A DNA stretch of 62,446 nucleotides, the filler included, from Stramenopiles sp. TOSAG23-6 (Eukaryota), in NCBI GenBank assembly GCA_900128565.1. It is 13 parts of 13 records of this genome, joined end to end, with 100 filler letters (N's around TTAATTAATTAA, not from the genome) between each part and the next. Parts side by side here need not be neighbours in the genome. Positions count along the whole stretch, not along the records: positions 1 to 4,729 come from LT637070.1; positions 4,830 to 9,558 come from LT637071.1; positions 9,659 to 14,380 come from LT637072.1; positions 14,481 to 19,202 come from LT637073.1; positions 19,303 to 24,019 come from LT637074.1; positions 24,120 to 28,836 come from LT637075.1; positions 28,937 to 33,650 come from LT637076.1; positions 33,751 to 38,456 come from LT637077.1; 5 more parts are not named here. The stretch is one strand, 5' to 3'. The position numbers and the translations under genes are program-made. Shown piece by piece: positions 1-59,667 of this stretch; the stretch's first letter is position 1, and each line of letters opens with the position of its first letter. Under the pieces are notes generated by a model. The model had not been told where the DNA came from and searched no databases. It saw nothing but the letters and a program-made list of their open reading frames with translations.

Positions 1-99
1 AAAAAAAATCTAAAAAAATTTGTTAGGTACAAAATTTCGTACGAAAAAAAAAAATTAATTCAATTTTTTTACCGAAAAAAAAAATAAATAAAAACATAC

Positions 100-571
100 A
101 TGGAAATTGTTCATCTTCAGTATCGACAACGGATCCATTTTTGCAATTCATGATATAAAGTGAATCAATATTGTCAGTAGACGATGATCGTACACATATA
201 TTGAAAAAAATATGTCAAATGTAAATATTATTATTGTTAGGTACAAAATTTCCTACAAAAAAAAAAAAAAAATTATAAAAATGTCCAAAAAAAATATAAA
301 ATATAAATTAGAAATTGAAATGATGAAAACGTACATTTGATACGTTGATTGCAATATGGTCCACCCCATCCAGACTCACACAAACATGAACATTGTTTAG
401 CATATCCTATAGGCTTTCCATGAATACCACAATTAATTACACCCGCATCAATTTCATTTTGATTGCCTGTAGAATTATCACCTGCATTTGGTTCTGTACA
501 TATTTTTGGGGAACAAATTTCTGCATCATTTAAAAATTGACCAATATCACATTTAATTGTTGTGGGTATAC
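100..571 (-). CDS. EGF-like cysteine-rich protein, internal exons 571-335 and 195-100 (partial)
   Basis: Hand translation gives CIPTTIKC...NCGIHGKPIGYAKQCSCLCESGWGGPYCNQRIK|CVRSS..., with an EGF CxCxxGWxGxxC motif. The frame is kept across intron 334-196 (GTACGT...AATATAT). Confidence 0.65.
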
Positions 572-673
572 ATGTATTTTGGAAAATATTTCAAAAAAAA
601 AAATCAAAAAAAAATTGTTAGGTACAAAATTTCGTATGAAAAAAAAAATTGAAATTCGAAATTGAAAACGTGC

Positions 674-1365
674 ATTTCCAATTTTTTTTCGAAATCATTT
701 AAACGGTTTTCTACTGAGTGTTGGATTTCATCGCGCGGTACAATTGTATTACGCAGTCTATCTTCGGATTTTTCCAACATACTTACAAAGGTGTTGTACT
801 TTTCATCATCTTTTTTATCCATTGTAAATATTAAATTTTTTTGGTTTTCAAGTAATTTCAGATTAGTTTCAGATAAATCTGTATGCAGTTTTTCGTCACG
901 TTCTTTACTTTCATTTATATTTGCACAATGTTGTCGATGAAGCTCATCAAGGCGAGAGTTAATTCCTCCAATATCGCGTTCAAGTGTTTTTCGTAGTTGT
1001 TGAGTAGAGCACTCTGTGTTTCGTACCTCTTCCTCGCTGTAACACTGAGTTAGCTTCACTGCACGAGCCAAGTTGTTGATACGACAGTCATTTGTTTTTT
1101 GCTCTGCTTCGATCTTTTTCAAAGTTTCCCCAAGATTAATTGTCTGCTTCGCATTCTCATCAGTTTTGATATTAATTTTATTTAAGTCAACGCCCAGTTC
1201 CTTCGAAGCTAATACTGCAGCTTTACTAACCTCTTCGAGTTTGTTTTCCAAAAAAGTTTGATACGAATCTCGATCAACTAACATATTTTTTCCATCACCA
1301 CGAGAACGATTGGTGAGTTTTGAGCGCTGATACTGTTCTACATATGTATTACTTACTGAGCGCAT
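674..1365 (-). CDS. Coiled-coil hypothetical protein, first exon
   Basis: ORF 604..1365 is heptad-rich. It runs into intron sequence at a GCACGTTTT donor (673), so the ORF tail (HVFNFEFQFFFSYEILYLT) is intronic. Confidence 0.6.
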
Positions 1366-3409: not shown

Positions 3410-4729
3410 ATGAAAATGAAGTTGTCATCATTTCAAGTTTTCCTGACTATTGCGTTGTTTATATCTGTGAACGCTGAGCCTGAGAAAACGACAGACGTTA
3501 ATTCTGGGTCAAAAGATGAAGAAAACAAGAAACCTTCTGATTCTAGTTCTTCTACTTCGTGTTATTCGCTGTCCGAAACATCGTGTAATCAGAATTCTGC
3601 CTGTAGGTGGAATGCGAAGGGTATGACTCAAGAGGAGAAGAAAGCTTGGGAAGATAAGAACGATAAACGTCGTTTGGAAAAGTGTCCTGAGAAAACGACT
3701 GAAGAAATTATAAAAGAAATCGACCAAATGATGGAGGAAGATTGTGGAAAAGAAATAAAAACATGTCGCGAGGATGTGTCGTGTAAGGACCAGCTTTTTG
3801 CACAAGTGAAAAATTGTACACCTCCAGACTGTTCAAACGGATCTTGCAAACCTCTTATTCTAGCTGTTGTACAATGCTACCAGAAGTTAGCTAGTTCACC
3901 AGCAGGATCGGGAGCTTGTGAACAGGATAAATGTAAAAGCAAGACGTGTAACGTCAGTGATTGTTGGCCTTTTAATGAATTTGATTCAAATTGTGCCAGA
4001 GAAGGAAATATTATTCCTTGCCGAGATTGTGTATCCTCAGGTCAATCGTGTCATAACGTTTCTGCGTGTTCTGACTCAATGATGACTTGTAAAAATATAC
4101 CTTCTACTGAAAATTTAACGCATCCATGTAAAGAACCTGCTTGTGATGCAAATCGAAAAGGCCCCGTTTGTAAACAAAAAGTTTTTGATTTTTGTAAGAA
4201 GGGAAGCGGAACATCATGTACGTTGTCATCATGAATTTTAATTTTTTTTTTCGTACGCAATTTTGTACCTAACGATTTTTTTTACACCAAAAAAAATATA
4301 TATATTTTCTCACAATACATGTTCTCCAACTGGTTGTAATGCATTTATGAGCAAAAATACATTTGACTACAATAATGTTAAATGCCCATTCAAGGATGCA
4401 AGTCAAACATGTGAAAAAAAAGAGTGTCAAGCATACAAACATAATCTATTTGAATCTTTCGGGTCCAAAGAATGCCGAGGTGGTTCAGGATGTATTTATG
4501 ATATGGTACTTCAACTTGCTGATCAGACTCGAAGATCGCGGCGGTATTTAAGACGCCTTGTTGATTCGTCATCTGATCCGTCTATGACGAGTGGTGAGAA
4601 AGAAAGTAAACAAACTGGTGATGGTGATCCGTCTATGACTAGCGAGAAGGAACAACAATCTGATGATAACGGACCCCCCGAATGTATCAAGTCATGCTTC
4701 GTTGGCCTTCAAAAGGAACCTGACTGCGA
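3410..4729 (+). CDS. Secreted cysteine-rich protein (exons 3410-4217 and 4321->4729; truncated by contig end)
   Basis: Signal peptide MKMKLSSFQVFLTIALFISVNA and many Cys. Removing intron 4218-4320 (GTACGT...AATACAT) gives GTS|CSPTGCN in frame. Confidence 0.7.
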
Positions 4730-4829: not shown

Positions 4830-5811
4830 TTTTTTTTTCCTTGGTTTTTTTTTTTTTTTTACAAAATTTTTTTTTTTTTTTTTTTTTTTTTGGTTTCGTA
4901 CGAAATTTTGTACCTAACAGAATGTAAAAAAAAAATGAATTTTGTTCTTGACAAAACATGACCTGCTGAAAATGATGAAAATGATGAAAATGATGAAAAT
5001 GATGAAAATGATGAAGAGGCAGAGCAATATAATAACAATAACAATAATAATAATAATAATAATAGATATAATACTGGTATTTCTGAATTTAATGATGATA
5101 ATAATGATAATAACGCTCCAAATTGGATGGCAACAGAGTAGGGTTAGTGTGAATAGAGTAGGGTTAGGGTTAGGTAAAGGGTATGTGGCCATCACAATTT
5201 GTGAAAAATGATATAGGATAATAGATAATATAGTCAATACATTGAATGAAAACAATAAATATAATCAGATTGTTGTCATATTGAATATATACAAACTTAG
5301 TAAACAAATAATTAGATAATTGTTTTTATTGGTTAAACTATAATTGATTTTTTCCCACACATTTGACTCAGTATTGTCTATCTATTACTATATAATAATA
5401 ATTATGGTTATTATATGTTGTCATACGATTTTTTTCTTTACGAAAACCCGAAAACCAAAAAAAAAAAAAAATCAATCGTAAAAAATGCTCTAATTTCTAA
5501 AGTAAGTGGGCTTCTCTGGTACACAGATTTAGATTGAAAGATTGTACTACAAAAGCTAACCCTAGAGGTCATCTACAAAGTTTCATAAAGAAAGTCCACG
5601 CCTAAGATTCTTTCTTTACACATTATCATTTAAAAAAAAATAACTACGAAAATTCGTGTACCAAAATAACAACGACGTCGGTTATTTGCAAATCCATTCC
5701 ATGTAGTAACGGCCGTATCCTTCTCCTTAGTGCATGCATTAGATGACCGTTTTTTTTTCACCATGGGCCAAGTTTACCAAACCATACCGTAAACAACTAA
5801 ATCACATCAAG

Positions 5812-7578: not shown

Positions 7579-8245
7579 CTACGTACTATGTAATTCATTC
7601 AATTCATTGGAAATATAATCAAAAGCTTCCTCAACAGTCATTTCTCTATTTTTCATGTTTTTCGTGTTTTTCGTCTTTTTCGTCTTTTTCGTCTTTTTCG
7701 TCTTTTTTGTGTTAGGGTTAGGGTTTAAATCATAAAACACATCTAACCACCAGTGTCTTCCTATCAATGGATGTTTTTGAATATTAATCATATAATTATT
7801 TTCACTTAACCCACAAATAGTATTCCAAACATATACACTGTACAAAAATATTTTGAAAAAAAATTTGGTTAGGTACAAAATTTCGTATGAAAAAATATCT
7901 TGATGAAAAAAATATATTTTGAAAAAAAAAAAATCTTTTTTTTTGTTAGGTATACAATTTCGTACGAAACCAAAAAAAAAAAAAACATACATGATTCGCA
8001 ATACGACATGTTTTGAAATATACAATTTTCATTTGGTGTTTGAAGTTTTGCTCTTTGTAGCAAAGATGCTAATAAAATCCATAAATATTCGCATTCCAAT
8101 TTGTTTGTTGATGTGTTATAATTGTTATTTGTACTATATTTCATATTTGATACTCTTTGCATTGGATGAATAACCAGTTCAATACATGTTTTTGAAAAAA
8201 TATTTCAAAAAAAAAAAAAATTCGTTAGGTACAAAATTTACTATG

Positions 8246-8280
<35 letters not shown>

Positions 8281-8339
8281 AAATTTAAATTTAAATTTAA
8301 AAAATTGAAAAAAAAAAAAAATTTTTTAGGAAAAAAATT

Positions 8340-8377
<38 letters not shown>

Positions 8378-9470
8378 TAAAATGTTAATTTTTTTTTTTT
8401 TTAAATTCATAAAAAATTTCATACAAAATTCATACACAAAAAAAACGTACGATCGGCTACAATTGATATTCCTAAATGTATTGGAACGTCACCAGTGATA
8501 CTGAATTCAACTAATTGTTTGAATGGTTTAATAGCCAATGGATCAAATTGTAACCACGAAAAAAGACAAAAAATATTTCTATTTTTTTGGTATTTTTTTG
8601 TTAGGGTTAGGGTTTTCAAAATTGAATTTTTGTCAGACTTTTTATAATTTTCTCCATTTGTATTTTTCATATATACCTCAATATCATTTGCATACGAATC
8701 TAAATATGTATGAATTGTTTGGATACTAGAATTTTGTTCCGATGTTGTTTGAGATAAAATTGATATTTTGTGAAAAAATATTCAAAAAAAAATCTAAAAA
8801 AAATTGTTAGGTACAAAATTTCCTACAAAAAAATATTTAAAAAAAAAAAATTCTACATTTAAAAAAAAAACCTACATTCATCGCAGTTGTCAAGAAACCA
8901 ATCCAATATTTTCAATATTTTCAATTCTACTTGAATTTCATTTGTAGTCATTTTTGATTGATTTGTGACTTTAGTTGTATAACGATGAATAAATGTATGG
9001 AAAGAAATCATTTCAATATTATGTGATACAAAAATATATTTCAAAAATGTATAATTTTTGTTAGGTATGAAATTTTGTACGAAAAAAAAAAATTCAAAAA
9101 TATTTTAAAAATTTTTAAAATTCCTTCAATATAAAACATACCAAAATTGATACCAATTGGTTTTCATTGATATTTGATTGTTTCATTACTTCTGTTATTT
9201 CAGTGCAAATATTTTCATGTAATTGAGATAAAGATAGTTCCCGGTACTCTTGACTAGAAGAATTCATATTTTGAATAAAATCATTTTTTGATTTTTTTGA
9301 TTTTTTTGACTTTTTTATATTTGTAGGGTTTCTTTTAGGGTTAGGGTTATTTTGAATAGAATTATTTTTTAATTTTTTTATATTTTGATACATTTGATGA
9401 ATATTTTGAATAGATATTCTTTCATACAAGACATCACTGCATTGATCTTGGATGGTTGATACTATACTGT
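7579..9470 (-). CDS. Multi-exon hypothetical protein (3' part)
   Basis: ORF fragments 9115..9555, 8859..9044, 8419..8670, 7869..8162 and 7579..8025 join in frame if family introns are removed at AT acceptors (e.g. IL|NIEM, AD-R-IELVIHP). Confidence 0.5.
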
Positions 9471-9665
9471 GAGTTTTTTTTTTTTTTTTTTTTAAAAACT
9501 TTTTAGGTACGAAATTTCCTAAAAAAAAAAAAAAAAAAAAAATTGTTAGGTACAAAATNNNNNNNNNNNNNNNNNNNNNNNNNNNNNNNNNNNNNNNNNN
9601 NNTTAATTAATTAANNNNNNNNNNNNNNNNNNNNNNNNNNNNNNNNNNNNNNNNNNNNAAAATTT

Positions 9666-9702
<37 letters not shown>

Positions 9703-9920: not shown

Positions 9921-12286
9921 AATCATATGTGCAACTGCACATCATGGAATATTTAGATGGAAATCTTTGTGATTTGAAAGGAGAAAAGTCACCACAGAGA
10001 GAAAATAGATCATTACAAGATCGACACGTCATGTACGTTGTTTTTTTAATTTTTTTTTCCAAATTTTTTTCATACGAAATTTTGTACCTAAGGATTTTTT
10101 TAAGATTTTTTTTTAGATTTTTTTTTCCAAATTTTTTTTCATACGAAATTTTGTACCTTACAAATTTTAAAACTTTTTTTTCAAATTTCAAATTTTTTTT
10201 TCAAATGTATATTCATTATTATTTCAAAGCCAAAGAAAGCCAAAGAAAGCCTGATAAAACCTGATAAAACCTGATAAAACCTACTAAAACAAATCAAATT
10301 TGATATATTTTCACAACAATACATTCGTATATTATTAGATATTTCAAAAGGTGTCTTTCAATTACACAAATTTGGATTAGTCCACTCTGATTTAAAACAA
10401 GTTAATATTCTGTATAAAAATTTGAATGTATATGATTTAGTCGAAAAAATACGAAAACAAACGAAACAAACACGAATAAAGAACAAAAGGAACAAAAGGA
10501 ACAAAAATAAGTCTAATTTTGACGATGCTCTAAATGATATTGATTTTTATTCAGATCTTGTGTCGAGTTCTAGACTCGCGAAAGATCGCGAAAACAATGA
10601 AAAGATTTTACAAAGGAAAAAAGCATATGTATGTTTTATTTTTTTTCAATTTTTTATCTAACAATTTTTTTTTTTCGTACGAAATTTTGTACCTAACAAA
10701 AATTTTTAGATTTTTTTTGAAATATTTTTCCAAAATACATGCTGTTGCAATGTATGAAGCCGAGATACGAAACGGTCATCCAGAAATTAAAGAAGCTGTA
10801 GGTTTCCATTTTTTTTCATAGTAAATTTTGTACCTAACATTTTTTTTTTTTTAAAAAAAATACTAAAATAATATATATATATATATATATATATTTGTAC
10901 AATATATGTCGACATTGCTGAATCTGTACGATTTCGTAGACAAGTGTTTGGAAAGGAAAGTCAAGAATTTGAAGAAGCTGAGGACGAAGCGATAAGTGCA
11001 TATAATAAATATAAATTTCCAATCATTGTTAAATTAGGAGATTTTGGATGTACTGCAGAAATTGGTCGACGAAGAAAATGTTATTCACCACGTGTATCTT
11101 TTCAAAATTCAACTTTTTTTATTTATTTCAATTATGAATTTTTTTTTTTTTCGAATTTTTTTAGTCATTTTTTTGGTAATATTGTAATATAGAGATTTCT
11201 ACTACTATATGAACTATGTGTTTCATTATATACCTAACAAACCTAACAAACCTAACAAACCTAACAAACCTAACAAACAACTATCAAATTTATACAATAT
11301 TGTAATACAAATTATACATTTCCACCAAAAGAAGTCCATTATAAAACATTTGGAACAAATATCAATCCAAAATTACATACAAAAGATGATGTTTTTTCAG
11401 TAGGTATACTCGCAATGATTTTGTCTCGTTGGGATATTGATTGTAGTAATAACAATGAAGAAATGATGAAAGCAGGAACATTTTTGAGAACACAATTTCG
11501 TAATGAAATCTTTCCATCTGCAGATAGAATTGTTAATTTTTATTTAGGTGATGAACCTACACGTTTTATGAGTCAGTCTTGTACGTTTTTATTTTATATG
11601 ATTTTTTTTTTCGTACGAAATTTTGTACCTAACGAATTTTTTTTTGAAATATTTTTATTATTTTTATTATTATTATTATTTTCATATCTAACAAAATAAA
11701 ACATTTAAATATTTTTATTAACAATACAGTACTTGCTTTACTAAAAACAAAAGTGTTAGTGCCAAGACAAGAAAGAGTTGAAATTGATGTTTTATACAAG
11801 TTATTCTCAAAGTATTTACAACAGCAAGATACTCAACTAATGGGGCTAAAACAACGTGGGTCGTCTCCTCCTATACCAATTGGAAAAAAGCTTCCAGGAG
11901 GAAACTCACATTGGAACAGATCAAGAAACAAATTGATAAACAAAAGAGGTGGAGGAAGACATTTTGATGACCGTCAAAATTATTTTCAACCAATACGAGA
12001 AAGAGAAGGACAACGTCCAAGAAGAGAAAGACAACAAGAAGTGAATCATTTTCAACCAATAAGAGAGAATGAAACTAAAAGCACTAAAAGCACTAAATAT
12101 CCTAAAAAACGTTCAAAATGGTTTCAAAATCCCGGACCACTTGACACTCAAAGTGATTATTCTGTAAATTCACCACATCCACGACAACAAGGGAGATATG
12201 CACGAATACCTAATGAAGCAGGACAACCACAAAATGATACAAATTCAATTGTGTCGACATTTTGTTCATTATTTGGAATTTGCTAA
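9921..12286 (+). CDS. Ser/Thr protein kinase, multi-exon (5' partial)
   Basis: IMEYLDGNL hinge, LVHSDLKQVNIL catalytic loop, VKLGDFG, PPKE (APE-like) and DVFSVG. Introns 10033-10324, 10629-10740, 10798-10907, ~11094-11315 (boundary uncertain) and 11581-11729. Confidence 0.85.
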
Positions 12287-13865: not shown

Positions 13866-14303
13866 ATGAATTCTGTCTATCTTTACGTGTCCCTTGTTTT
13901 TTTTATTATATGTAATATTTTAGGGATTTCAAGTTTCTATACATTTAAGTACTCTGGAACTTCAGATGGGAGACAAGGTTGTAAAGCTAAAGCATCCAAT
14001 AATAAAGGAATTATTGGTAACGAATGCGTATTTTGGAATGAATTTCTAATTTTTTTTTTTTTTTTTCGTACGAAATTTTGTACCTAACAAAATTTTTTCA
14101 AAATTTTTTTGAAATATTTCTTCACAATATGTGTCTTTTGGAATGAAGGCGTTTGTCGTAAAGGAATTGTTGTGGAATCAGATAAAAAAATGCCAATCTG
14201 TGAAAGTGCAGCAAATTATCTACTTGTTATTCTTATAAGTTTTATGTTAACAAGTATGATTTTATTTGTGTTTTTTTTAATCAGTGGAATTGTCTGTGGT
14301 GGT
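13866..14303 (+). CDS. Small membrane protein with Cys-containing loop (partial)
   Basis: Two hydrophobic segments. Intron ~14026-14130 joins NE|CVFWNEGVC; next donor GTATGT at ~14304. Confidence 0.5.
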
Positions 14304-14480
14304 GTATGTTTTTTTTTTTTTTTTTNACAAAAAAATCGATTTTTTTTTCGTACGAAATTTTGTACCTAACGAATTTTTTTNNNNNNNNNNNNNNNNNNNN
14401 NNNNNNNNNNNNNNNNNNNNNNNNTTAATTAATTAANNNNNNNNNNNNNNNNNNNNNNNNNNNNNNNNNNNNNNNNNNNN

Positions 14481-15318: not shown

Positions 15319-16799
15319 TTATAATTGTAATGCTTCTTTCACTTGATCCATAGTCTCAGTAGCCATTCCTCTAGCTTCTAATGCACCTTTTTGAAGAATT
15401 TCATCAAGATGTGTTTGATCATTTATTTACTGTGAATTTTGTATGTAGTAAAAAAACTGTTAGGTACAAAATTTACTACGAAAAAAAAAACTTTAAAAAA
15501 TTTAAAAAAAAAATATTTTTTTTTGTTAGGTACAAAATTTACTACGAAAAAAAAAACTTTAAAAAAGTCAAAGAAACATTATGAAAACGGACAATCTTTT
15601 CTTAATTTCATTTCCAATAGGAACAATACGTTCAACAACAACTTCTGTCAATTCTTTTTTTAAACGCTGCATTCTATGTATTTTGGAAAAATATTTCAAA
15701 AAATTTTTTTACCAAAAAAAAAAAAAAATTTGTTAGGTACAAAATTTACTATGAAAAATCACCATTTTCTAGGTATTTAATGACAGATTGAACATCCATC
15801 CCAGTTAGACCAGCATAAATTCCTGTATTGTAAAAAAAAAAAAAAAAAAAAAAATGCTTTAGGTACAACATTTTCTATGAAAAAAAAAAAAATTTTAAAA
15901 AAAAAAAAAAAATACCTATTAAATTGGATACCAGGGCGTTGGATTGGATCCCATGTTAAAGGTCCTTGTATTGCATCTGTTTTTGCTTTTTTAATTTTTT
16001 TTTCTATTAAATCAGCCGAGTCTGTCAAATCAATACGACTAAATGTAGACAAGTCTGATTTTGACATTTTTTTTAGACCATCACGTAAAGAAGACACTCG
16101 ATGTGTCGTTGTATTTTCAACTATTTTGACTTTTTTATTTTTTTCTTCATTTTCATTTTCTTTGTTTGTATCATTTGAAATTTTTACATTTTTATTTTCC
16201 TCTTGTATTCCAACTAATGTTTGAGGTAACACAAATACTTCTTTATCAACATAATAGTTAAATCGACTGGCAATTTCTCTACATAGTTCAATATGTTGGC
16301 ATTGGTCATCTCCTACAGGGACAACAGTGGCTTGATATAATAAAATGTCAGCTGCTTGGAGTACTGGGTATGCATATAATCCTAATGGCGACATGGATCT
16401 ATCTTTCCCACTCTTTTGCTTAAACTGTGTCATTCGATTTAAGTGACTCATCTGTGTAAAACAACTGAGAATCCAAGATAATTCAGAGTGCTCTGGTACG
16501 TCAGACTGTACGAATAAAGTACTCTTTTCGGGATCTATACCACACGCAAGTAATGCTGCAGCAGTAGAACGAGACCGAGAACGTAAACCACCATCATTAT
16601 AAGTAGTACTTATAAATGATGTAATTGCATGAAGATCGACAACGCAGTATAATACACTGTCATACATGGGATCGTGCTGTCGAGATTCCCAATTGACTAA
16701 AGCTCCAAGATAATTTCCTAAATGAGGACAATGCCCCGTAGGTTGTATTCCGGAAAATATTCGTTGACGGGTTGCCATAGCTGTCGCACGTCCAATCAT
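15319..16799 (-). CDS. WARS2: Organellar (bacterial-type) tryptophanyl-tRNA synthetase, 4 exons
   Basis: IFSGIQPTG, HLGNYLGA (HIGH), DLHAIT, YPVLQAADILLY, VPVGDDQ, KMSKS. Downstream exons GIYAGLTG, AAFKKELTEVV and NDQTHLDEILQKGA...ALQL*. Apparent frameshift near 15930. Confidence 0.93.
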
Positions 16800-40719: not shown

Positions 40720-41281
40720 TGATTTTTTTTGGTAAAAAAAATCGTTAGGTACAAAATTTTGTATGAAAATTATAAATTTAGATTTTTTTGATTACTTTTA
40801 TTGCAAGTGATATAAAAAGTTCAATTGTCTTGTGTTGAATAAAGTAAATGTCTTGAATGATTGCACTAAGTTTTGCTCTACTTTCAATATTTACTATGAA
40901 ATTTTATTTCAAAGCATTCACTCGGAGTTCCTTTTTACACATAATAATAATAATTTTCAAGCCAAACACATGCACTAACATCAAGATGGTTTGTTGGCTC
41001 ATCCAATAAAAGTAGTTTTGGTTCAACGAGTCCTCTTTTTATAAATTTCAAATTGACGTCTTTTTCACCTGCAACCACAAGCAAAACACGAAATATACCA
41101 GTGTTTACTGCAGGTGATCTTTTTTGCTATTAGAATAGTAGCAAATAAATATAGCCAGCCAGCACACTAATCACAATTAATTGAATTAATTAAAAAAAAT
41201 GTTCCTTGCAGATTCCTCGACCTAGTATACCGTCAAATAAACAATAAAAGAAAATATTCTTAAGACGTCAACTTGCTTACA

Positions 41282-42460: not shown

Positions 42461-43066
42461 ACTCTCTAGGAATTCCGTGATGACCACTCCAAGTACTACC
42501 CTCTGTACGTCCTATTCGTTTTCCTTCCCGTTCTGGAATATTTCCACCTTCATGAATTATGAAAAAATATTTCAAAAAAAATCGTTAGGTACAAAATTTC
42601 GTATGAAAAAAAATAAATTCGAAATATAAAAAAAAGTAAAACATACTGCCTTCCAAATTCGTTCTTTTGTCATATTTTCATCATTAAAATCGGTAACTGG
42701 TGTCCAACAGAATTGATTATCCTTTAAATCTCTTAATTCACTACAAACTGCTTGCTCAGGACAAGGCTGGATGAGTTCCATGGCACCGTAGGATTCAGAT
42801 GTGTTTTGGAAAAGTATTTCAAAAAAAACTCGTTAGGTGCAAACTTTCGTACGAAAAAAAAAACAAATTTGAAAAAAAATCAAACATACATTTATAACAA
42901 CCCAGTTTTGTCCAATTTGTAATTTCTGGACCCGATTGACTCATAGAATGAATTGCCATATTACACCACTCATAATCTAAAATATGTTCTTTTGTAGAAA
43001 ACCAAACGGAATTGCAGATTTCATTTCTATCTGAAATACCACTTCGAATCTTTTTCAACACAAAGA
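42461..43066 (-). CDS. Hypothetical protein, last three exons
   Basis: Exons join in frame via GT-AT introns: GCYK|SESYGAM and IWKA|EGGNIPER...*. Confidence 0.55.
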
Positions 43067-43359
43067 TGTATTACAAAAAAATATTTAAAAAAAATTCAAA
43101 ACATTTGTTAGGTACAAAATTCCCCATTAAAAAAAAATTGAAAATTTGAAATTCATGATGAAAACGTCAATGAATAAAAACTCAAAAAAAAATATTTTTT
43201 TTCTTAGGTACAAAATTTCGTATGAAAAAAAATAAATTTGAAATTCATGATGAAAACGTNNNNNNNNNNNNNNNNNNNNNNNNNNNNNNNNNNNNNNNNN
43301 NNNTTAATTAATTAANNNNNNNNNNNNNNNNNNNNNNNNNNNNNNNNNNNNNNNNNNNN

Positions 43360-46300
43360 CACAGCAATGAAATTTCTTCATTGGTTCATTACTTCCATAT
43401 TTATATCAATGTTGATTTAATTTTCCTAATTTTTGCGTTGTTTTTTTATTTTTCCCAATTTTGCATGCATTATTTTTTTATTTTTCCCAATTTTTATATT
43501 GTTTTTTTATTTTTCCCAATTTTTGTATTGTTTTTTTATTTTTCCCAATTTTTATATTGTTTTTTTATTAGTAGTAGTAGTATCATTATTATTATTATTA
43601 TTAATAGTAGTATTATCATTATTATTATTATTATTATTAGTAGTAGTATTTATAATATCATTATGTTTTCTCGTTACAGTTGAATCATTCTTACTATAAT
43701 ATTCTTTTGTTGTCGGAGGTTTTGGAAGTAATAATTGTAATGAGTTAATTGTAATAATATCATTTTTACTATTTTCGATATTATCCTTTTTTAACCCTAA
43801 CCCTATCGTAGATGATGAAGAAATAGTATTGTTTTTTGACCCTATTATAGAAGAACAAGATAATGTATTTACTTTCGGAACTAATGGAGGTTTTTTAAAG
43901 TTTGGAGATGTCGGAGATGTCGGAGATGTTCCAAAAAAAATATTTTCAAAATTTTTTTCTTCTGTTGATGCTGAACACTCAATATTATTCTGTACACACC
44001 CTAACCCTAATCTTTTTGGTTTGGACGAGTTTTGTGTATGTATGGTAGATGTATTGTCTGTCGTATCAAGATTTGAAATATTTAAAATTTCATTTTCATT
44101 TTCATCACTAGGGTTAGGGTTAGGGTTAGGGTTCTCTTCCCCATCATTTTCATCATTTGTGAACCATTTAGAAGGTAATCTATTCCGAGATACTTGACTT
44201 TTTGTTTTTTCAGGTTTTCGTGTCATTGAAAGTATGTTATCTGTATGCACAGGCCATATGTGTAGTAATTGTTGACTAGCTTCGGTAATAGTAATCCATA
44301 ATAAATGCCATAATTTGTTAATAGAAAACACATTAATACTGTTTCGTATTTTTTCTATATTTCGTGTTTTTTCTATATTGGTGTTTGTTGTCGTTTGATC
44401 TACAAATGTATTATTATTAGTATTATTATTATTATTAGTAGTAGTAGTATTATTATTAGTATTATTATTAGTATTATTAGTAGTAGTATTAGTAGTATTT
44501 CGTGTAGTCATACTATTTGGAAGAGTCACAACAGAAACAGAATGAGACATACTATTTGGAAGAGTCACAACAGAAACAGAATGAGATGTCTTCATAGATT
44601 GCTCAAATGGATTATTTTGGCTAGGGTTAGGGTTATTCGTCCATTTTGTTTTTTTCTCATCATTTTTTGAATGTTGTAATAAAATGGTACAGTTTTTTTT
44701 CATTTCATTAATTTCAAACAATATTTGAGATTGTTTTGTCTCTATTTCTAATTGTAACATTGATAAGTTCTTTTCAATAAAAATTGTTTGTCGACGCTTG
44801 AAAATATTTCGTGTTTTTTGATTTTTTCGTGTTTTTTGTTTTTTTTGATTTTTTTGTTTTTTTTGATTTTTTTGTTTTTTATTCTCATTTTCATTTTGTA
44901 TGCACTCATTTTGTACTATAACATTTGTGAAACTCATTAATTCATCATCAATACTACCATTACTCAGATCACTGATATCATCCTCGATACTACTTTTACT
45001 TGAAAATGACCTTTCACATGTATTGTAAAAAAAAATATTTTTGAAAATTTTGTTAGGTACAAAATTTTTATAAAAAAAAACCAAAAAAAAAAAAAAAAAA
45101 AAATTTGAAATTCATAATGAAAACATACTACTTTCTCTACTTAGTGATGAATTCTCAAAAAAGGTAGGGTTAGGGTTGACGTCACCATCACTGGTAGACA
45201 AAATAGATCCTTCACTATTTTCTCGAGATAATAACATAGGGTTAGGGTTGACGTCATCATGACTTGTAGTAGGGTTAGGGCGTGCAATAGATAGATCATT
45301 ATTTGTTCCATTAGGGTTATTAGGGTTAGGGCTAGGATGATGTTTTGGTGACGTCATAATTGTGAGAGACGACGATATTGATCGCGCTGTATTCTTGACT
45401 GTATCTACAGTTTTTTGTATACGATGTTTCATATTTTTCACATTTTTATGTTTTTCGTGTTTTTTTCGAGATTGGACTCGTTCAGTGCCATATAATGGCA
45501 TTGATTTACACAATTCAATGGCTTGATTGATTTTATATAATAATCGAGATGTTGTTGTATTTAATCTTGATTCAATAGTATCTAATTCAAAACAGATCCA
45601 TGTACATAAATTTGTTGATTCGTGATTGTACCACATATATTTCAAAAAAATATTTCAAAAAAAAAAAAAAAAAAATCGTTAGGTAAAAAATTTCCTATAA
45701 AAAACAAAAAAAAAAAAAATCGTTTTTTTTTTTTTTTTTTTTTTGTTTAAAAAAAATTTATAGGAAATTTTTTACCTAACGATTTTTTTTTTTTTTTTTT
45801 TGAAATATTTTTTTGAAATATATGTGGTACAATCACGAATCAACAAATTTATGTACATGGATCTGTTTTGAATTAGATACTATTGAATCAAGATTAAATA
45901 CAACAACATCTCGATTATTATATAAAATCAATCAAGCCATTGAATTGTGTAAATCAATGCCATTATATGGCACTGAACGAGTCCAATCTCGAAAAAAACA
46001 CGAAAAACATAAAAATGTGAAAAATATGAAACATCGTATACAAAAAACTGTAGATACAGTCAAGAATACAGCGCGATCAATATCGTCGTCTCTCACAATT
46101 ATGACGTCACCAAAACATCATCCTAGCCCTAACCCTAATAACCCTAATGGAACAAATAATGATCTATCTATTGCACGCCCTAACCCTACTACAAGTCATG
46201 ATGACGTCAACCCTAACCCTATGTTATTATCTCGAGAAAATAGTGAAGGATCTATTTTGTCTACCAGTGATGGTGACGTCAACCCTAACCCTACCTTTTT

Positions 46301-48196: not shown

Positions 48197-49400
48197 CATC
48201 TTCTTTCAAAATGTCTAGTGTAAAATTGACAGCATAATTAGCTACTGATTGTTTTCCATAATATAATGCATTAAATTGTGGAAGACCAATTTGAAGGGCC
48301 ACAGCCCAAAATGGAACATATCCAAGATATAATCCATTTTTAACACCAATATACATAAATGATGCAGCAACAATAATGCCAGGAGCTCTACATTTATTTT
48401 TAAAAAATATTTCAAAATGTTGAAATTTGTTAGTCATTTCGTATAAAAAAAAATTGAAAAAAAAATTGAAAAAAAAAATGAAAAAAAAAATTGAAAAAAA
48501 AAATTGAAAAAAAAAATGAAAAAAAAAAATGAAAAAAAAAAAATGAAAAAAAACAATGATTTTAAAAACATACACCAAGTATTAAGATTTGCAGACCATC
48601 TTTTTTCTTGACGTCGACCAAATAATTCACATTTGACTAAACCTAAAAGAAAATAATCCAAACCACCTGGTAATCCACTAATAAAAAATGCTTGCCAATT
48701 CCCAAGAGCTCCAAAATGAAATATTTGTCCAGGTAAGCCAAGGGTTGGAATAAATAAAAAATGATGAAAATAATCTGCTGAATTTAAACCAAAACCTCAT
48801 AAAAAGTAAATTATATATTGTAATACTAAATAGAAACAAATAAATACATTTGGTTGATATAATAATATATATAGTATTGAGATACATGTAATATATTCAA
48901 AATACCAACCATATGATACAGATGAACACTATTTACAATAGTCAGTGGCCAAATTGATTTTTTGAGTACAATATATTACATTCGAAATTGGTTAAAAAAA
49001 TATTGTTAGGTTAGGTACGAAATTTTGTAGGAAAAATAAACACACAATGCATAGATAAAATATAATAGTTTTCTTTCAAATAAACATGTAAAATACATCC
49101 ATTGCCAAACATTGATCGGTCTGAATTAACACTTCCACTCAAAGCATTCACTGGGTCATTTAATATACTACTCATTGAACTCATGGCAGTGAGACAGACA
49201 AGAAGATTTGCAAAAGCATGAACGAAAAACCATCTTCCATTTGACTGATCACGGCTCTTTTTTACGTGACGTTTCACGAATGGTTTTACAATGATGTGGT
49301 CTACAAATAAAAGCAACGCAATCACAGCAATGTTATTTCTTAAATGTTGTAAAAGATAAGTGACTGTCATTGGTTGCTTGAGTGATGCATTCCACGACAT
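48197..49400 (-). CDS. TLC (TRAM/LAG1/CLN8)-like multi-pass membrane protein, multi-exon
   Basis: RWFFVHAFAN, HLYHM, GLPGGLDYFLLGLVK and LNTW|CRAPG (intron 48573-48392 ends in AAT). Confidence 0.7.
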
Positions 49401-49798: not shown

Positions 49799-50408
49799 TT
49801 ACTTTTTAGATAAATCTGTAAAAGTAATAATTGAACCATTCGATAGCCCAGATTCACTCAATGACGTCATACATGCTTCAGGTGAATCACCAAGAATCTG
49901 TTTATTATTTTCATTAGAATTTGTTGATGTTTCTTCCAAAACAGTTTTATCAGTGATATTGACTTTACTATAACATTGTGGTACAAAAGATGCGATAATA
50001 TTTGTAGTTTGGCCGTTTTTCGTGTTGGGGACAATTCCTAAATTGACTGCACAATTTCTCAACACTTCACCAATTGTACAAGAATTATTGTATGACATGT
50101 TTAATAGTATTTTACTATTTTCTTTTTTTACAATAAGTTGAATCTCATTATTATTATTATTATCAATAGTATTATCAATAGTATTATTAATATTATCAAT
50201 AGTATTATTAATATTATCAATAGTATTATTATCAATAGTATCATTATTATTATCAATAGTATCATTATTATTATCAGTATTATCATTACTATCATTATTA
50301 TTATCAATATTATCATCAATATTATCATTATTATTATCAATAGTATCATTCAAAGTGTTTTTAGTATTACCGAGAGGTTTTCTAAAAACAGCACGAACAA
50401 AAACTCTA
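49799..50408 (-). CDS. Terminal exon with Asn/Asp-rich repeats and ubiquitin-like C-terminus
   Basis: (DNN)n tract; TIGEVL...SLSESGLSNGSII resembles the end of a Ubl/UBX fold. Confidence 0.45.
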
Positions 50409-50486
50409 TTTGCAGTTTTTTTTGTTAGGTACAAAATTTCGTATGAAAAAATTAATAAATTTGAAATTCATGATGAAACAACATAC

Positions 50487-52856: not shown

Positions 52857-53052
52857 NNNNNNNNNNNNNNNNNNNNNNNNNNNNNNNNNNNNNNNNNNNN
52901 TTAATTAATTAANNNNNNNNNNNNNNNNNNNNNNNNNNNNNNNNNNNNNNNNNNNNTTTGGAAAAATATTTCAAAAAATCTAAAAAAAATTGTTAGGTAC
53001 AAAATTTCGTATGAAAAAAAAATTTGAAATTGAAAACAAAAATAAAACATAC

Positions 53053-54277: not shown

Positions 54278-55208
54278 ATGTCATGGATAAATAAGATGAA
54301 GAGCATGATTCATTATCTGCCATTATCTAAAAGAAAGGTTGGATTTCTTCTTTTTGTCTTACTTATTATATTCATTCTTCGATGGCAAGAGAAAGCTGCA
54401 GCATTGAGAGGAACACGACGTAAGCCTTTATCGAAGTTTAGTGACAAATCTCTCCGCTTACTTTATCTACTCATAATCGCTTCCCCTGCATTATCATTTG
54501 CTCCCAAAATTACTCTTCTTTTTCTTATACCGTATGCGTTTACATTTATTGATGGTTCCGAGAAAAAACTCGGCCGCACAAAATCATGGTACAGCAAGTG
54601 GCAAAGAAATATGCCATTTTTTGCATGGCTATCACGAAGACTCAATTTAAAATTAGTTAGTACGTCAAAGATAGACAAATCAAAGTCTCATATTTTGTGT
54701 CTCCATCCTCATGGAATTTTACCACTTGGTGGAATGGGTAATTTGTTTACTGACTTTTCAAATGTAAAGGAAGTTCTTCAAGGTTTGGAATACCATGCTT
54801 TAGCTGCGTCATTTTGCTTTTACATGCCTGGAATTCGTGATATATATTTGGCTGGTGGAGTTGTTGATGCGTCCCGATATGTTGCTCAGGGTGTATTAGC
54901 TTCTGGGAAATCGCTTGTTCTTGTTCCTGGTGGAGCTTCAGAAGCTCTTTATTCAAAACCAGGTGTACGTTTTTATCATCAATTTTTAATTGTTTTTTGT
55001 ATGAAATTCCGTATTAATATCAAACATTTGTTTTAACAAATTTCAAAAAAAAAAAAAAATATTTTTAACAATATATGCTTCTACTTTAGTATTAAAGAAA
55101 CGATTTGGATTTATTACGTTGGCCATGGAAACGGGCGCTTCACTTGTCCCAGTGTATTCCTTTGGTGAGACGGATACGTATGATACCATTTCTGATACGG
55201 GTGCTTAT
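54278..55208 (+). CDS. DGAT2: Diacylglycerol acyltransferase 2 family (3' partial; mirror copy 55401-56331 -)
   Basis: HPHG, F..PG.RD, VPGGASEAL..KPG|ASTLVLKKRFGF and GASLVPVYSFGE. Intron 54965-55076. Confidence 0.92.
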
Positions 55209-57817
55209 GTACGTTTTCATTTTAAAAAAAAAAAATTCATTTTTTTTTTGTAGTAAATTTTGTACCTAACGATTTTTTTTACAAAAAAAAAAAAAAAAAA
55301 AAAATTTTTTTTTTTTTTTTTTTTTTGTAAAAAAAATCGTTAGGTACAAAATTTACTACAAAAAAAAAATGAATTTTTTTTTTTTAAAATGAAAACGTAC
55401 ATAAGCACCCGTATCAGAAATGGTATCATACGTATCCGTCTCACCAAAGGAATACACTGGGACAAGTGAAGCGCCCGTTTCCATGGCCAACGTAATAAAT
55501 CCAAATCGTTTCTTTAATACTAAAGTAGAAGCATATATTGTTAAAAATATTTTTTTTTTTTTTTGAAATTTGTTAAAACAAATGTTTGATATTAATACGG
55601 AATTTCATACAAAAAACAATTAAAAATTGATGATAAAAACGTACACCTGGTTTTGAATAAAGAGCTTCTGAAGCTCCACCAGGAACAAGAACAAGCGATT
55701 TCCCAGAAGCTAATACACCCTGAGCAACATATCGGGACGCATCAACAACTCCACCAGCCAAATATATATCACGAATTCCAGGCATGTAAAAGCAAAATGA
55801 CGCAGCTAAAGCATGGTATTCCAAACCTTGAAGAACTTCCTTTACATTTGAAAAGTCAGTAAACAAATTACCCATTCCACCAAGTGGTAAAATTCCATGA
55901 GGATGGAGACACAAAATATGAGACTTTGATTTGTCTATCTTTGACGTACTAACTAATTTTAAATTGAGTCTTCGTGATAGCCATGCAAAAAATGGCATAT
56001 TTCTTTGCCACTTGCTGTACCATGATTTTGTGCGGCCGAGTTTTTTCTCGGAACCATCAATAAATGTAAACGCATACGGTATAAGAAAAAGAAGAGTAAT
56101 TTTGGGAGCAAATGATAATGCAGGGGAAGCGATTATGAGTAGATAAAGTAAGCGGAGAGATTTGTCACTAAACTTCGATAAAGGCTTACGTCGTGTTCCT
56201 CTCAATGCTGCAGCTTTCTCTTGCCATCGAAGAATGAATATAATAAGTAAGACAAAAAGAAGAAATCCAACCTTTCTTTTAGATAATGGCAGATAATGAA
56301 TCATGCTCTTCATCTTATTTATCCATGACATTATCACGTATATAGCGTAATAAAGAGTACTTTATTACTACTACTGTAGCACGCAAGTTTCCCAAAAGGT
56401 AGCTCAGCAAGGAATTTCAAAATTTCAATCTTCCAAAAATGTCGTCACTACGTGTCAAGCTGACGAAAAAATCAGCCTGACTAATTCCTGATTAATTTTT
56501 TAAGTACGAATATTTGTACTTAAGTCCTGCTGCGCGTCATCGCAGCTGACCAAAAGTCACCGTAGTAGTCAGTTCTTTTCGCTTAAACTTTAAAGAAAGA
56601 AAACTTGCAGAAAAGTTCTTGCGCTTTGAAAAACAAACTAAAACATGATGAAACGTCTAATCATTCTCACATTATTAATATGTACAACTGCTTCAGTGCC
56701 CCATTCGTTACGTGCAGCAGAAAAGCGAAAGCGAGGTGACGCCAAAGTAGTCGATCTCACAGGGGACTCAAGCGAAGAAGCCAACGAAGACGACAGTGCA
56801 GGCGTCAATGATGAAAGTGATGATGACAGTGATGATGAAAGCCTCCATGATTTTCTTTTTGCTGATATGTTACAAGCTGAAGAAAAACCGCGTAAAAAAC
56901 ATCGTTCAGAAAAACAATTACCGTCAACTGCGGCAGAATTTCTCAAAGCTGTTAAAGATGATGTCTTTCCAGTGAACGCGGCCGCGGCCACTCTACAGGG
57001 TCGAAATTCTGACTGGCTGGATACCAAAGAGACTGACCAAAGGGGGAAGACTGCATTATTCTATGCTGTTATAAATAATAATCTGGAACTTGTAAAGGAG
57101 CTGATACGCATAAACAATACTCGAGATATCGGTGTAGACGCGAAAATTAACTTTATTAACCCGATTGATAACTTTTCAAAAACAATACCATTGCACTCAG
57201 CTGTCACAAAACTCAATTTACCAATGATTAAAGTATTGGTCGAAAATGGAGGAAATGTCAACTGGAAAAGTAGCCGTTATAACAGAGAGAAGACACTTCT
57301 TATGGACGTAGTGAGTAGTGATTCCGAAGAAAGTCCAAAAGTACTCAAATACTTGTTAAACAAAGGTGCTGATGTAAATGCGATGGATACAGCAGAGATG
57401 ACACTGTTAATGCATGCTGCGTCGTCACTTTGCGAAAATGCACAGAAAAAGCAGATTATAACAATTCTTCTAACTGCTGGTGCAAATGCAGATGCTGTGA
57501 GCCGTAGAGGTACTACAGCTTTCAGTTTAACGTTTTTACACAGATCTGGAGGTCATGTATGTTTTATTTTTGTTTTCAATTTCAAATTTTTTTTTCATAC
57601 GAAATTTTGTACCTAACAATTTTTTTTAGATTTTTTGAAATATTTTTCCAAANNNNNNNNNNNNNNNNNNNNNNNNNNNNNNNNNNNNNNNNNNNNTTAA
57701 TTAATTAANNNNNNNNNNNNNNNNNNNNNNNNNNNNNNNNNNNNNNNNNNNNTCATACGAAATTTCGTACCTAACATTTTTTTTTAGATTTTTGTTGAAA
57801 TATTTTTCCACAATACT

Positions 57818-58543
57818 TTAACGTTATTTCAGATTTTGGTATCAAATGGCGAAGTTGATAAATATCAAGCAAATCAAATGCTTTCTCATTATTGCACTAA
57901 TCTCGGTGATTCCATTTCTTTCATGAAAAAATATTGTACTTCAATAAGGGATATACCAAATTCTGAAACATTTTCAATATTTATTGGCTTTGCATCAATA
58001 TATGGTCATATTAAAAATACTAAAAATACTAAAAATACTAAAACTGATAATAATAATTTGTGTGTGGGTAATAATAGCATTGAAGAAATATACAAAATCG
58101 CATCGAAATATTCACAAAGTAATAGTTTAAAAAATACACTTAAAATTGTAAATAAAGAAGAATCTATTCGGATGTCTGTATCAAAATTAAGACAATTTTG
58201 TAAATGGGGCATTGAAGGAGAAGAAGCAGCACAAAAACTGTATGATAGCCTAGTTGAATTCAATATGGTGACAAGTCGCCACCATGAATTGATGATGTTT
58301 CATGATGCATTGAAGCGAGGTCCAGATGGTTTGAAGATCTTATTAAACACTCTCAATCGAAACAATGAAAATGAGCATAGTACGAAGCCTAGAATCTCTT
58401 CAAAGCATAAAATAGATGATGATAAAATAGAAATCTCTTCAAAGCATAAAATAGATGATAAAAAAATAGAAATCTCTCCAGGAGATGATGTAAGAAAAAT
58501 TGACCAAATACCAAATTGGATCTTGGAATGGAATAAAAAATAA
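57818..58543 (+). CDS. Hypothetical protein, last exon
   Basis: Open frame following a family-intron 3' end at the contig start; acceptor position approximate. Confidence 0.45.
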   Translation, partial: LTLFQILVSNGEVDKYQANQMLSHYCTNLGDSISFMKKYCTSIRDIPNSETFSIFIGFASIYGHIKNTKNTKNTKTDNNNLCVGNNSIEEIYKIASKYSQSNSLKNTLKIVNKEESIRMSVSKLRQFCKWGIEGEEAAQKLYDSLVEFNMVTSRHHELMMFHDALKRGPDGLKILLNTLNRNNENEHSTKPRISSKHKIDDDKIEISSKHKIDDKKIEISPGDDVRKIDQIPNWILEWNKK

Positions 58544-58602
58544 ACAGTAAATTTTAAATTTGACAAAATGGTTTTAATTTCTACTCATAAACACCTTTAA
58601 AA

Positions 58603-59667
58603 CTAGTCTTCTTGTAGATTTACCCATCTCAATACTCGCATTAACTCTTGAATACGATCGACATTGTCAACCATTTGTTGACATACACGTATTATGAAAA
58701 AATATTTCAAAAAAAAATTCGTTAGGTACAAAATTTCGTATGAAAACAAAATTAAATTAGAAATTCATATAAAACATACACTATCAAGAACTGTGGCTTT
58801 ATGCCATGGACAAGGTGGATTTTGACCTCTTAACCATTGTAATATTTCTAAATGACCATGCATAGCTGCCATACTACACAGAGCGCCATTCCATGGGCAT
58901 GGAGGATTTTGGCTTCTTAACCATTGTAACATAAGAAGATTGCCTTTCATCACAGATACAAAGCAGGTATTTCGATCCCATGGACAAGGTGGATTTTGAT
59001 TTCTTAACCATTGTAATACTTCTAAATTACCACTACGAGCTGCATTGGTACACACTCTTTCACTCCAGGGGCACGGTGGATTTTGAGTTCTTAACCATCG
59101 TAACATTTCTAAGTTACCACTCAGAGCGGCATAATTACATGCATCTTCATCCCATGGGCAAGGCGGATTTTGACTTCTTAACCATCGTAATGTTTCAAAT
59201 TTGTTATCCAATGCTGCTATACGACATGCATCTGCATTCCATGGACAAGGTGGATCTTGGCTTCTTAACCACAGTAATATTTCAAAGTTACCACTCCCAA
59301 TTGCTTCGGTACACACACTCTCATCCCACGGACATGGCGGTGTTTGACTTCTTACCCATTTTAATACTTCTAACTGACCCTTTTCAGCTGCATACGTACA
59401 TGATTCACCCCACGGGCAAGGTGGTTTCCGACTTCTTAACCATTTTAAAAAGTCCAAGTCACCTTCCTCAGATGCTTTACAACACGTCACTCTACCCCAA
59501 TCAGCACCCACCAACCAAGGCCGTTGCGAATCATTTGAAACAACTCTACCTGAGAGTCTGTCTTTTAGACATAAATAGCTGGTAATTATAACTGCTGGAC
59601 CTAGCCCACTTAGTACCAGTTGTAGAACCTCTTCTTCGTGCTTTGTTCGCTTTCGTTGTAAAGACAT
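58603..59667 (-). CDS. Ankyrin-like 'WLRSQNPPCPW' repeat protein, 2 exons
   Basis: About 9 repeats of C..AA..G.LE.L.WLR.QNPPCPW. Intron 58779-58687 extends the CDS to a stop at 58603. Confidence 0.85.

Follow-up and report, generated by a model that had tools for sequence, protein, structure and literature searches.

Introners are said to have been described in Micromonas and Aureococcus by Huff et al. in 2016. Here we describe a family of introns that resembles them in Stramenopiles sp. TOSAG23-6 (GenBank assembly GCA_900128565.1), based on a window of 62,446 nucleotides (nt) in which 13 contigs of 4694-4729 nt each are joined via artificial N-TTAATTAATTAA-N spacers (G+C 32%). The introns have a yeast-like 5' splice site and a CTAAC branch point, and most of them end in AT and not in AG, the almost universal acceptor. 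We read them as spliceosomal introns of one uniform, introner-like class, in which the conserved boxes are splicing signals and which spread by copying, an interpretation that we regard as probable, if only narrowly.

As far as the accessible portions of the cited papers go, here and in the comparisons below, published introner families (PMC9860276, PMC12130899), which come from Micromonas, Aureococcus and numerous further eukaryotes, most of them aquatic, share several traits with the present one: many near-identical short introns in unrelated genes, a strong enrichment in genes, a marine protist host, and splice signals carried by every copy. The published families end in AG or AC, whereas the family here ends in AT and seems to make up all of the introns seen and not a subset. 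It works like introners but fails the target-site duplication test (published duplications are 3-9 bp) and is without clear terminal inverted repeats. Introner surveys take annotated introns as their starting point and drop families whose splice sites are unfamiliar unless transcripts support them (PMC9860276, PMC12130899), so that the present family would have been missed.

Introns and introners of Amoebophrya (PMC7789003), also a marine protist, likewise depart from GT-AG at genomic scale and make gene predictors fail; they too are repeated, with short direct repeats across their boundaries and complementary ends. Unlike our family, they have no fixed terminal dinucleotides and carry inverted repeats of 8-20 nt that form hairpins. 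Here we find a canonical 5' site and branch point, fixed GT...AT ends, and folds that beat shuffled sequences in only 1 of 14 introns. Non-AG ends are also common in the genomes of euglenids and diplonemids (PMC6221363, PMC12621601), whose nonconventional introns lack conserved borders or a U1-complementary 5' end and have a stable structure that joins the two ends. In the present family, in contrast, GTAYGT is near-invariant and there is no general fold.

U12-type introns carry the 5' site ATATCCTT or GTATCCTT and the branch sequence TCCTTAAC. Those of the AT-AC kind resemble ours in their non-AG acceptors and in a long, highly conserved branch box near the 3' end, but the donor here is GTAYGT and not ATATCCTT, the branch box is GTACCTAAC and not TCCTTAAC, and the introns are the sole class seen and not a rare minority. 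The family is neither U12-type nor euglenozoan-type. In yeast, the corresponding motifs are GTATGT and TACTAAC. Intron-poor eukaryotes such as yeast (PMC2483917) share the GTAYGT donor, the CTAAC branch point and a constrained 3' part with our family; here, however, the conserved span is several times longer, AG is unused, and density is not low (49 copies in ~61 kb). The accessible text of the literature, including that on MAST-3/Nanomonadea, holds no description of such introns that we could find, and supplementary files may hold notes on gene prediction. The accessible portions of MAST genome papers (PMC5778133, PMC12614181, PMC8163842, and the preprint 10.64898/2026.04.17.719054) describe none either.

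Results

One intron family in unrelated genes

The 16-mer GTACGAAATTTTGTAC, searched with at most two mismatches, has 57 strand matches at 43 distinct sites, compared with 0.17 expected, a number reached by none of 100 shuffles. For the 22-nt 3' box there are 12 matches (0.01 expected), five of them perfect and in different genes, and for the 22-nt 5' box there are 10 (0.02 expected), two of which are second arms of palindromic contigs. The original prediction held that unrelated genes on the 13 contigs share a tripartite intron, and proposed to count copies with a profile of the core. The shared intron is confirmed: an nhmmer profile built from 23 curated complete introns and scanned across the window at E<=1e-4 identified 49 distinct copies, present on 13 of 13 contigs, once four second arms of two palindromic contigs were dropped.

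Of these 49 copies, 45 have the sense orientation, and their host genes are unrelated. Orientation was called from the longer flanking open frame (>=50 codons) for 42 copies, from homology for two in the TrpRS gene, and for one as the first unit of a tandem pair. Two copies are antisense (38996-39061 and 40734-40769) and one is decayed and non-coding (62280-62360). Scanning for donor- or acceptor-like motifs without a nearby core recovered nothing but family members (54965, 48573, 10324) whose core is degenerate or lies far away. No other kind of intron was recognised in the window; recognition was by sequence motifs, so some may exist. The introns are 81-292 nt long (median 100) and, although they belong to unrelated genes, form one alignable family.

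The host genes are ordinary eukaryotic genes and mutually unrelated. Based on Pfam and hidden Markov model (HMM) searches, they encode a tRNA m1G methyltransferase, ankyrin proteins, CBF/Mak21, an IP3/ryanodine-receptor-like channel, a U-box protein with Sel1 repeats, a SPRY protein, a TPP enzyme, Vps26, a DGAT2-like acyltransferase, a mitochondrial carrier, a kinase and a MYND protein with Sel1. For the bacterial-type TrpRS gene, the top match is a GSMAST32-labelled gene model in EukProt, at 89% identity, and this label suggests a MAST-3 marine stramenopile, as a lead and not as proof. Except for one gene model, seemingly the same gene, TrpRS has no close relative in the protein collection. 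Within the window we identified no tRNAs and no Rfam family at gathering score.

The near-equal, descending sizes of the contigs suggest that they are neighbours in a size-sorted assembly, and thus a sample picked by size and not by content. Contigs 10 (43360-48059) and 12 (52957-57652) are inverted duplicates of themselves, with identical open reading frames (ORFs) on both arms and centres at ~45730 and ~55305, as is typical of whole-genome amplification chimeras. Each feature on them was therefore counted once.

Anatomy of the boxes and the core

The 5' box is GTAYGTTTT (donor form G(T/C)AYGTTTT) and is yeast-like. In many copies it is followed by CATCATGAATTTCAAATTT (or CATCATGAATTTC), or else by CAATTTCGAATTTC. 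After this 5' part comes a T-run ending in C, and then the core, RTACG-AAATTTTGTAC, which runs directly into CTAAC as the earlier description had it; AAATTTTGTAC-CTAAC makes up a branch box of 16 nt. Downstream of CTAAC are R-A and a second T-run, often broken by AGA, and then a 3' box of ~20 nt, ATATTTTT(T)C(C/A)AAAATAC (box ATATTTTTCCAAAATAC), plus two further bases. The intron ends 18-96 nt after the end of CTAAC.

The most conserved block consists of the right arm and the branch point, AAATTTTGTACCTAAC, with 31 exact occurrences (three of them mirror copies). The core is indeed better conserved than the surrounding T-runs, in that its right arm and CTAAC are near-invariant. The 16-nt near-perfect palindrome that had been described is a feature of the consensus: [AG]TACGAAATTTTGTAC occurs in only 21 of 53 cores, and the G that would complete the palindrome in only 10. 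In about half of the cores the first base is A, so that the outer pair is lost (A-C at pair 1-16 in 22/53). The left arm varies without compensation (TAGT, TAGG, TATG) while the right arm is fixed, leaving G-G at pair 4-13 in 12/53 and T-T at pair 5-12 in 9/53. In a covariation test of the core, 70.1% of cells pair, compared with 70.7% after shuffling, and the score is 0.094 versus 0.105, with 395 of 500 shuffles equal to or above the observed value. A selected palindrome, or a hairpin kept by compensatory change, is not supported by these figures. Folding of whole introns gave z = -4.4 in one of 14 and values from -1.4 to +1.2 in the other 13; a stable fold as a general feature is likewise not supported, with 1/14 below z -2. 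In our reading, then, the core is an extended branch-point box and neither a hairpin nor a dimer-binding palindrome; the palindrome is a property of the consensus only.

A minority of cores (at 9060, 19172, 38146, 39038 and 49010) read ...AAAATTTC(G/A)TAC, nearly the reverse complement of the usual palindrome, with CTAAC still following. Such flipped cores differ from the usual one at positions 5 and 12, which form a pair. A core-like 16-mer, GTACGAATATTTGTAC, followed by TTAAG is located at 54085-54105 (mirror 56504-56524), between divergent genes and with no other intron box.

Intron boundaries and the acceptor

Boundaries were placed by fixing the donor at G(T/C)AYG and the acceptor at ATAC, and seeking the offset that joins the long flanking open frames. 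In 26 introns, the start is GT in 23 and GC in 3, and the donor hexamers are GTATGT (9), GTACGT (6) and others. Intron ends are AT in 20, AC in 3, AG in 2 and GT in 1. Thus AG is not the acceptor, in agreement with the original prediction. Thirteen introns combine an A/C/T-ACAT box with a known donor, and 11 of them keep the frame only with an end immediately after AT; with a chance of 1/3 for each, a binomial estimate is ~2e-4. AG as a hidden acceptor was considered and rejected: TAG within many of the T-runs is out of frame, and in several introns the stretch from branch point to exon contains no AG.

Protein profiles point to the same boundaries. The DAGAT profile covers positions 8-160 before and 161-211 after the intron at 54965-55076, which ends ATATAT, and the next AG downstream breaks the frame. 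The TPP-binding domain resumes directly after ...CACAATACAT (33454-33550), and no AG occurs from the branch point to the exon. With a TrpRS HMM (118 homologues), exact removal of GT...ATAC scores 3-4 bits above removal of 3 nt more, and other frame-preserving shifts, including removal of 3 nt fewer, score equal to it; the support for AC ends is modest. The U2-type features present are a GT/GC donor with extended consensus, CTAAC at the spacing given above, and frames and profiles that are continuous after removal. The U2-type AG 3' end is absent from all but 2/26. Seawater metatranscriptome runs contain 0.07-0.09 of the sampled words of contig 9, which shows nothing on splicing.

In the IP3/ryanodine-receptor-like gene the frame shifts twice (29307-29389 and 31303-31436), with no intron motif at either place. 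These changes are single-base assembly errors or something else, and frames in the assembly are not error-free.

Near-identical, tandem, antisense and decayed copies

Three 65-nt 3' halves on different contigs (19303-19367, 10676-10740 and 38563-38627) share 61-62 of 65 bases without gaps, and agree even in the lengths of their T-runs and in an internal TAGAT. The 3' halves of 13 of the 49 copies, chosen for a GAAATATTTTTCC-type box, are on average 86% identical. Two whole units stand head to tail at 43065-43259 and are mutually as diverged as any two copies, which looks like one element that landed beside another. The antisense copy at 38996-39061 (E 8e-7) lies within a 121-codon open frame between two sense introns, and a full-length copy with a decayed branch box (62280-62360) lies where no long frame exists. 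Intron density is uneven, with 0-1 in ORFs of 500-700 codons versus 5-6 per ~2 kb elsewhere. The near-identical stretches, the whole-unit tandem, and the antisense and decayed copies make the suggested introner-like origin plausible. That suggestion had been set against an extended splicing signal; the two are not exclusive, and our evidence is compatible with both together.

Single introns frequently contain the core unit duplicated in tandem, at a period of 58-69 nt (15425-15592, 38728-38849, 10033-10324 and 7833-7990), and one such duplication, of 66 nt, is perfect. For two introns, exon 2 opens with a near-copy of the intron start (14026-14150, 17 nt with 2 differences; 35894-36005, GCATGTTTTC versus GCATTTTCC), and the octamer GTGTATGT brackets the intron at 58687-58779. 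These repeats could be the trace of an insertion mechanism or of recombination.

Occurrence outside the window

A read-through peptide profile was built by translating 20 window sequences across the core in a single frame (alignment A2). Among 1.84 billion proteins it matched six: three GSMAST32 gene models, one from an ENA contig, one from a GOS scaffold and one from a Logan contig. The six represent different genes, each reading through a typical copy, and one resembles an ABC transporter by eye. Because the matches come from separate sources, the element exists in independent data, and current gene models leave it unspliced. GSMAST32 gene models (P0001, P0121, P0122, P0125; 15780-16886 (-)) read through introns, with peptides such as FFSYEILYLT..., and published protein sets for the organism are therefore affected.

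The 21-mer RTACGAAATTTTGTACCTAAC has 0 exact matches in public metagenome, genome and viral contig collections, and these scans returned no related genomic loci. An exon of the contig-9 gene gave no match of the kind sought among transcript-derived or orthologous proteins, and an intron read-through peptide gave no candidate among proteins of 52-167 residues.

Feature catalogue

Copies of the family are listed in Table 1. Three repeats accompany them. The kinase gene has an intron with only a degenerate core, in which AAACCTAAC is repeated fivefold in tandem in the branch region (11228-11280 (+)). Telomere-like CCCTAA repeats (39085-39105 (+)) lie in the open frame beside the antisense copy, and a 12-nt tandem repeat (TTTCAATATTCA, minus strand) at the window end (62386-62446) adjoins the decayed copy.

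Table 1. Intron copies in the window, with positions along the whole stretch.
Position	Strand	Feature	Remark
1..99	-	intron copy; 3' part past window start	nhmmer 12-55, E 1.3e-9; donor GTATGTTTT 62 nt 5' of core
196..334	-	intron GTACGT...ATATAT	
574..673	-	intron GCACGT...AAATAC	frame fits AC end, not following AT
4218..4320	+	intron GTACGT...ATACAT	
4886..4963	+	copy at contig start	5' end not seen; coding strand ambiguous
7833..7990	-	intron with two core + 3'-box units (7912-7977, 7833-7898)	
8185..8253	-	core + 3' box of long T-rich intron	
8763..8875	-	intron GTAGGT...AAATAT	
9021..9099	-	copy with flipped core GTACAAAATTTCATAC + CTAAC	
9497..9533	-	core unit at contig end; second core at 9545	
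10033..10324	+	long intron GTACGT...ATACAT	core units 10060-10111, 10129-10183, altered branch points; internal tandem repeats
10629..10740	+	intron GTATGT...ATACAT	sole intron with strongly stable predicted fold
10798..10907	+	intron GTAGGT...ATATAT	
11581..11729	+	intron GTACGT...ATACAG	AG end, two bases past ATAC
14026..14130	+	intron GCGTAT...CAATAT	exon 2 opens with 17-nt near-repeat of intron start
14334..14380	+	5' part + core, intron cut by contig end	
15425..15592	-	TrpRS intron GTCCGT...GTAAAT	perfect 66-nt internal core-unit duplication
15678..15762	-	TrpRS intron GTGATT...AAATAC, AC end	
15825..15915	-	TrpRS intron GTATTT...CAATAC, AC end; following AG out of frame	
19303..19367	+	intron 3' half at contig start	61-62/65 identical to 10676-10740, 38563-38627
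26679..26777	-	intron GTACAT...AATCAT in ankyrin-repeat gene, readable in frame	
33050..33102	-	weak degenerate copy, sense, just 3' of TPP-enzyme gene stop codon	E 0.005
33454..33550	-	intron GTATGT...ATACAT in TPP-binding domain	
33756..33820	-	5' part + core, intron cut by contig end	
35894..35992	+	intron GCATGT...CAACAT, core variant GTATGAAATTCCATAC	
38109..38205	-	intron GTATGT...ATACAT	
38371..38452	-	intron copy cut by contig end	
38555..38630	+	intron 3' half at contig start	
38728..38849	+	intron with two tandem core units (58-nt period), end CCAAAAATACAT	
38996..39061	-	antisense copy (core, CTAAC, 3' box) in + frame 38832-39194	E 8e-7
39164..39257	+	intron GTATAT...ATAAAT	
39543..39656	+	intron GTACTT...TTACAT	
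40285..40373	+	intron GTACGT...ATACAT, GA before donor	
40504..40603	+	intron GTATGT...ATACAT	
40734..40769	-	core copy antisense to + gene, ~25 nt 3' of stop codon	
42552..42646	-	intron GTATGT...ATTCAT	
42799..42889	-	intron GTATGT...ACACAT	
43065..43259	-	two whole tandem units	first 43182-43259, branch CTAAG spoiled; second 43065-43167, 5' site TGACG spoiled
45018..45128	-	intron GTATGT...ATACAT	mirror 46330-46443, palindromic contig
45631..45706	-	intron copy	mirror 45758-45827
48385..48462	-	weak copy, 5-nt core deletion	E 0.005
48997..49042	-	core copy CTACAAAATTTCGTAC + CTAAC	
50406..50486	-	Vps26-like gene intron GTATGT...AAATAG	without 3' box; AG in frame
52956..53052	-	intron cut by contig end	mirror 57557-57653
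54965..55076	+	DGAT2-like intron GTACGT...ATATAT, degenerate core	DAGAT profile spans; mirror on other arm
55209..55280	+	second DGAT2-like intron, 5' part + core, centre of palindromic contig	
57753..57821	+	intron 3' half at contig start, end ATACTT	
58687..58779	-	intron GTATGT...ATACGT, GT followed by GTATGT on both sides	
62280..62360	-	full-length decayed copy, branch box ATACCAAATTCTATAACAAAC, no long open frame	

Discussion

The boxes and their excess over chance, the sense orientation in unrelated genes, and boundaries that preserve frames and profiles are established here; no target-site duplication, convincing inverted ends or transposase was seen in the window. In the model that we narrowly favour, a single uniform class would cover every intron recognised in the window, each carrying the full set of splicing signals. 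The 3' cut would fall mostly two bases past the final AC, giving GT...AT introns, with a few that end in AC, AG or GT, and AG would be dispensable for defining the acceptor. The 3' box may set the place of the 3' cut, and the branch box, being extended, could provide extra U2 or protein contacts. The family probably arose by introner-like copying of one source intron, and purifying selection for splicing would keep the boxes while the T-runs drift. A bolder version, which we put forward tentatively as possible, is that the major spliceosome no longer reads AG in this marine stramenopile lineage and that the ~20-nt 3' box and the 16-nt branch box define the acceptor, with GT-AT and some GT-AC introns genome-wide, all from one self-copying ancestor.

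Several observations weigh against copied, AT-ending introns. Similarity among 5' bodies is uncorrelated with that among 3' bodies (Mantel r 0.007, p 0.50, n=23); linked 5'/3' subfamilies are not supported by this result, and discrete full-length subfamilies are therefore not seen. Block-wise conservation is also expected from selection alone. All copy counts, including the share of introns that carry the boxes and the intergenic copies, apply to the 13-contig window and not to the whole genome, and all boundaries rest on reading frames and protein profiles, not on transcripts. The inverted ends comprise no more than GTAT/ATAC and A/T runs. Pfam and HMM searches of the window identified no transposase, integrase or reverse transcriptase. 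In the 11 introns with a non-AT flank, the intron end matches the flank once (GT/GT, 58687-58779) and is still AT in 7. Three of the 26 introns (574-673, 15678-15762 and 15825-15915) fit an AC end and not AT. For these a donor one base upstream is possible; scoring, which covered the two TrpRS introns alone, places it 3-4 bits lower. In the intron at 574-673, an error in the length of an A-run (homopolymer) in the upstream exon is possible. Lastly, 13 introns have AT on both sides and would give the same mRNA from GT...AT or AT...AC. We prefer GT...AT because G(T/C)AYG is invariant while the preceding AT is missing in 11/26.

It is conceivable that no mobility is involved, and that ordinary vertical introns were shaped to one long consensus by a spliceosome dependent on the branch and 3' boxes and not on AG. 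Intron-poor eukaryotes with strong, uniform 5' and branch signals are known (PMC2483917, accessible portions). The block-wise pattern, in which the right arm and CTAAC are near-invariant while T-runs and inter-box inserts vary, fits such an origin, as do the boxes in every recognisable intron, the nearly constant sense orientation, and the lack of full-length subfamilies, target-site duplication and transposase. However, the copies that share 61-62/65 bases agree in features without an obvious signal role (TAGAT in the T-run, equal T-run lengths), intron density is very uneven among genes, and the antisense exonic copy, the decayed non-coding copy and the whole-unit tandem are hard to obtain without copying. 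The ~60 conserved positions per intron also far exceed any splicing code known to us. We consider a purely vertical origin unlikely, though well worth keeping in view. Copying by a non-autonomous DNA transposon resembling a miniature inverted-repeat transposable element, with ends GTAYGTTTT/AAAATAC and a duplicated AT target of which one copy became the acceptor, would account for the AT before the donor in 15/26 introns and at the intron end in 20/26. The flanking dinucleotide equals the last dinucleotide of the intron in 14/26 (13 of those 14 are AT/AT), the consensus ATGTAT...ATACAT is a 6-nt inverted repeat, and at 43065-43259 one element exactly adjoins another. Both junctions are alike (AT followed by GT), exon 2 starting with G in 13/26 and with GT in 9/26, a likeness that could reflect a spliceosomal exon preference or an insertion preference. 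Introner families with target-site duplications and terminal inverted repeats are known (49/130 and 72/177; PMC9860276), but the duplications in the accessible part of that study measure 3-9 bp, not 2. Here a non-AT flank is copied in 1 of 11 cases; the terminal AT is a property of the intron and not a copy of the target, and the proposed 2-nt duplication is not supported. In the consensus, GTAT(G)TTTT can pair with AAAATAC if one base bulges out, but the six GTACGT donors still face ATAC, with no GTAC match and no covariation, and meaningful terminal inverted repeats thus find no clear support. Together with 45/49 copies in sense and no transposase within the window, this makes such a transposon improbable.

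The boundaries themselves may be off by two bases, in which case most of the introns would be AT-AC introns (ATGTAYG...ATAC). Spliceosomes tolerate AT-AC as a terminal pair, the introns with AT on both sides are neutral in this respect, and the three that fit an AC end are in line with it. Yet these three begin with GT or GC and not AT, and the invariant 5' feature is G(T/C)AYG and not the preceding AT. For the DGAT intron, the shifted reading would give Asp and not Gly as the junction codon, although frame and profile fit both; we take this site to be Pro-Gly in animal DGAT2/MOGAT relatives. A general two-base error is thus decidedly improbable. That the segments are not introns at all, but products of assembly or amplification, or DNA removed from the genome and not from RNA, would be in keeping with the amplification chimeras (two palindromic contigs) and the apparent frameshifts in the assembly. 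This is extremely improbable given that the element recurs in read-through ORFs of three other data sources and that it bears hallmarks of spliceosomal introns, namely 5' GTAYGT, a sense orientation and CTAAC at 18-96 nt from the 3' end.

If it is indeed a uniform family of copied introns, the population would have consequences for the study of both splicing and intron gain. Introns that end in AT and have a textbook 5' site and branch point would offer a natural test of how the choice of a 3' splice site is made where AG is not used. A single uniform family that fills the genes of a free-living marine protist would be among the clearest cases of introns spreading as copies, and with the usual marks of a transposon missing, the mechanism of intron gain remains a testable question. 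If AG is no longer read, factors that recognise it, such as the small subunit of U2AF, would be lost or rewired, and published gene catalogues for these organisms would suffer systematic damage from introns left unspliced. For single-cell genomes of this kind, the counts of genes, the apparent pseudogenes and the functional inventories may be distorted, and the three boxes provide a simple rule for their re-annotation.

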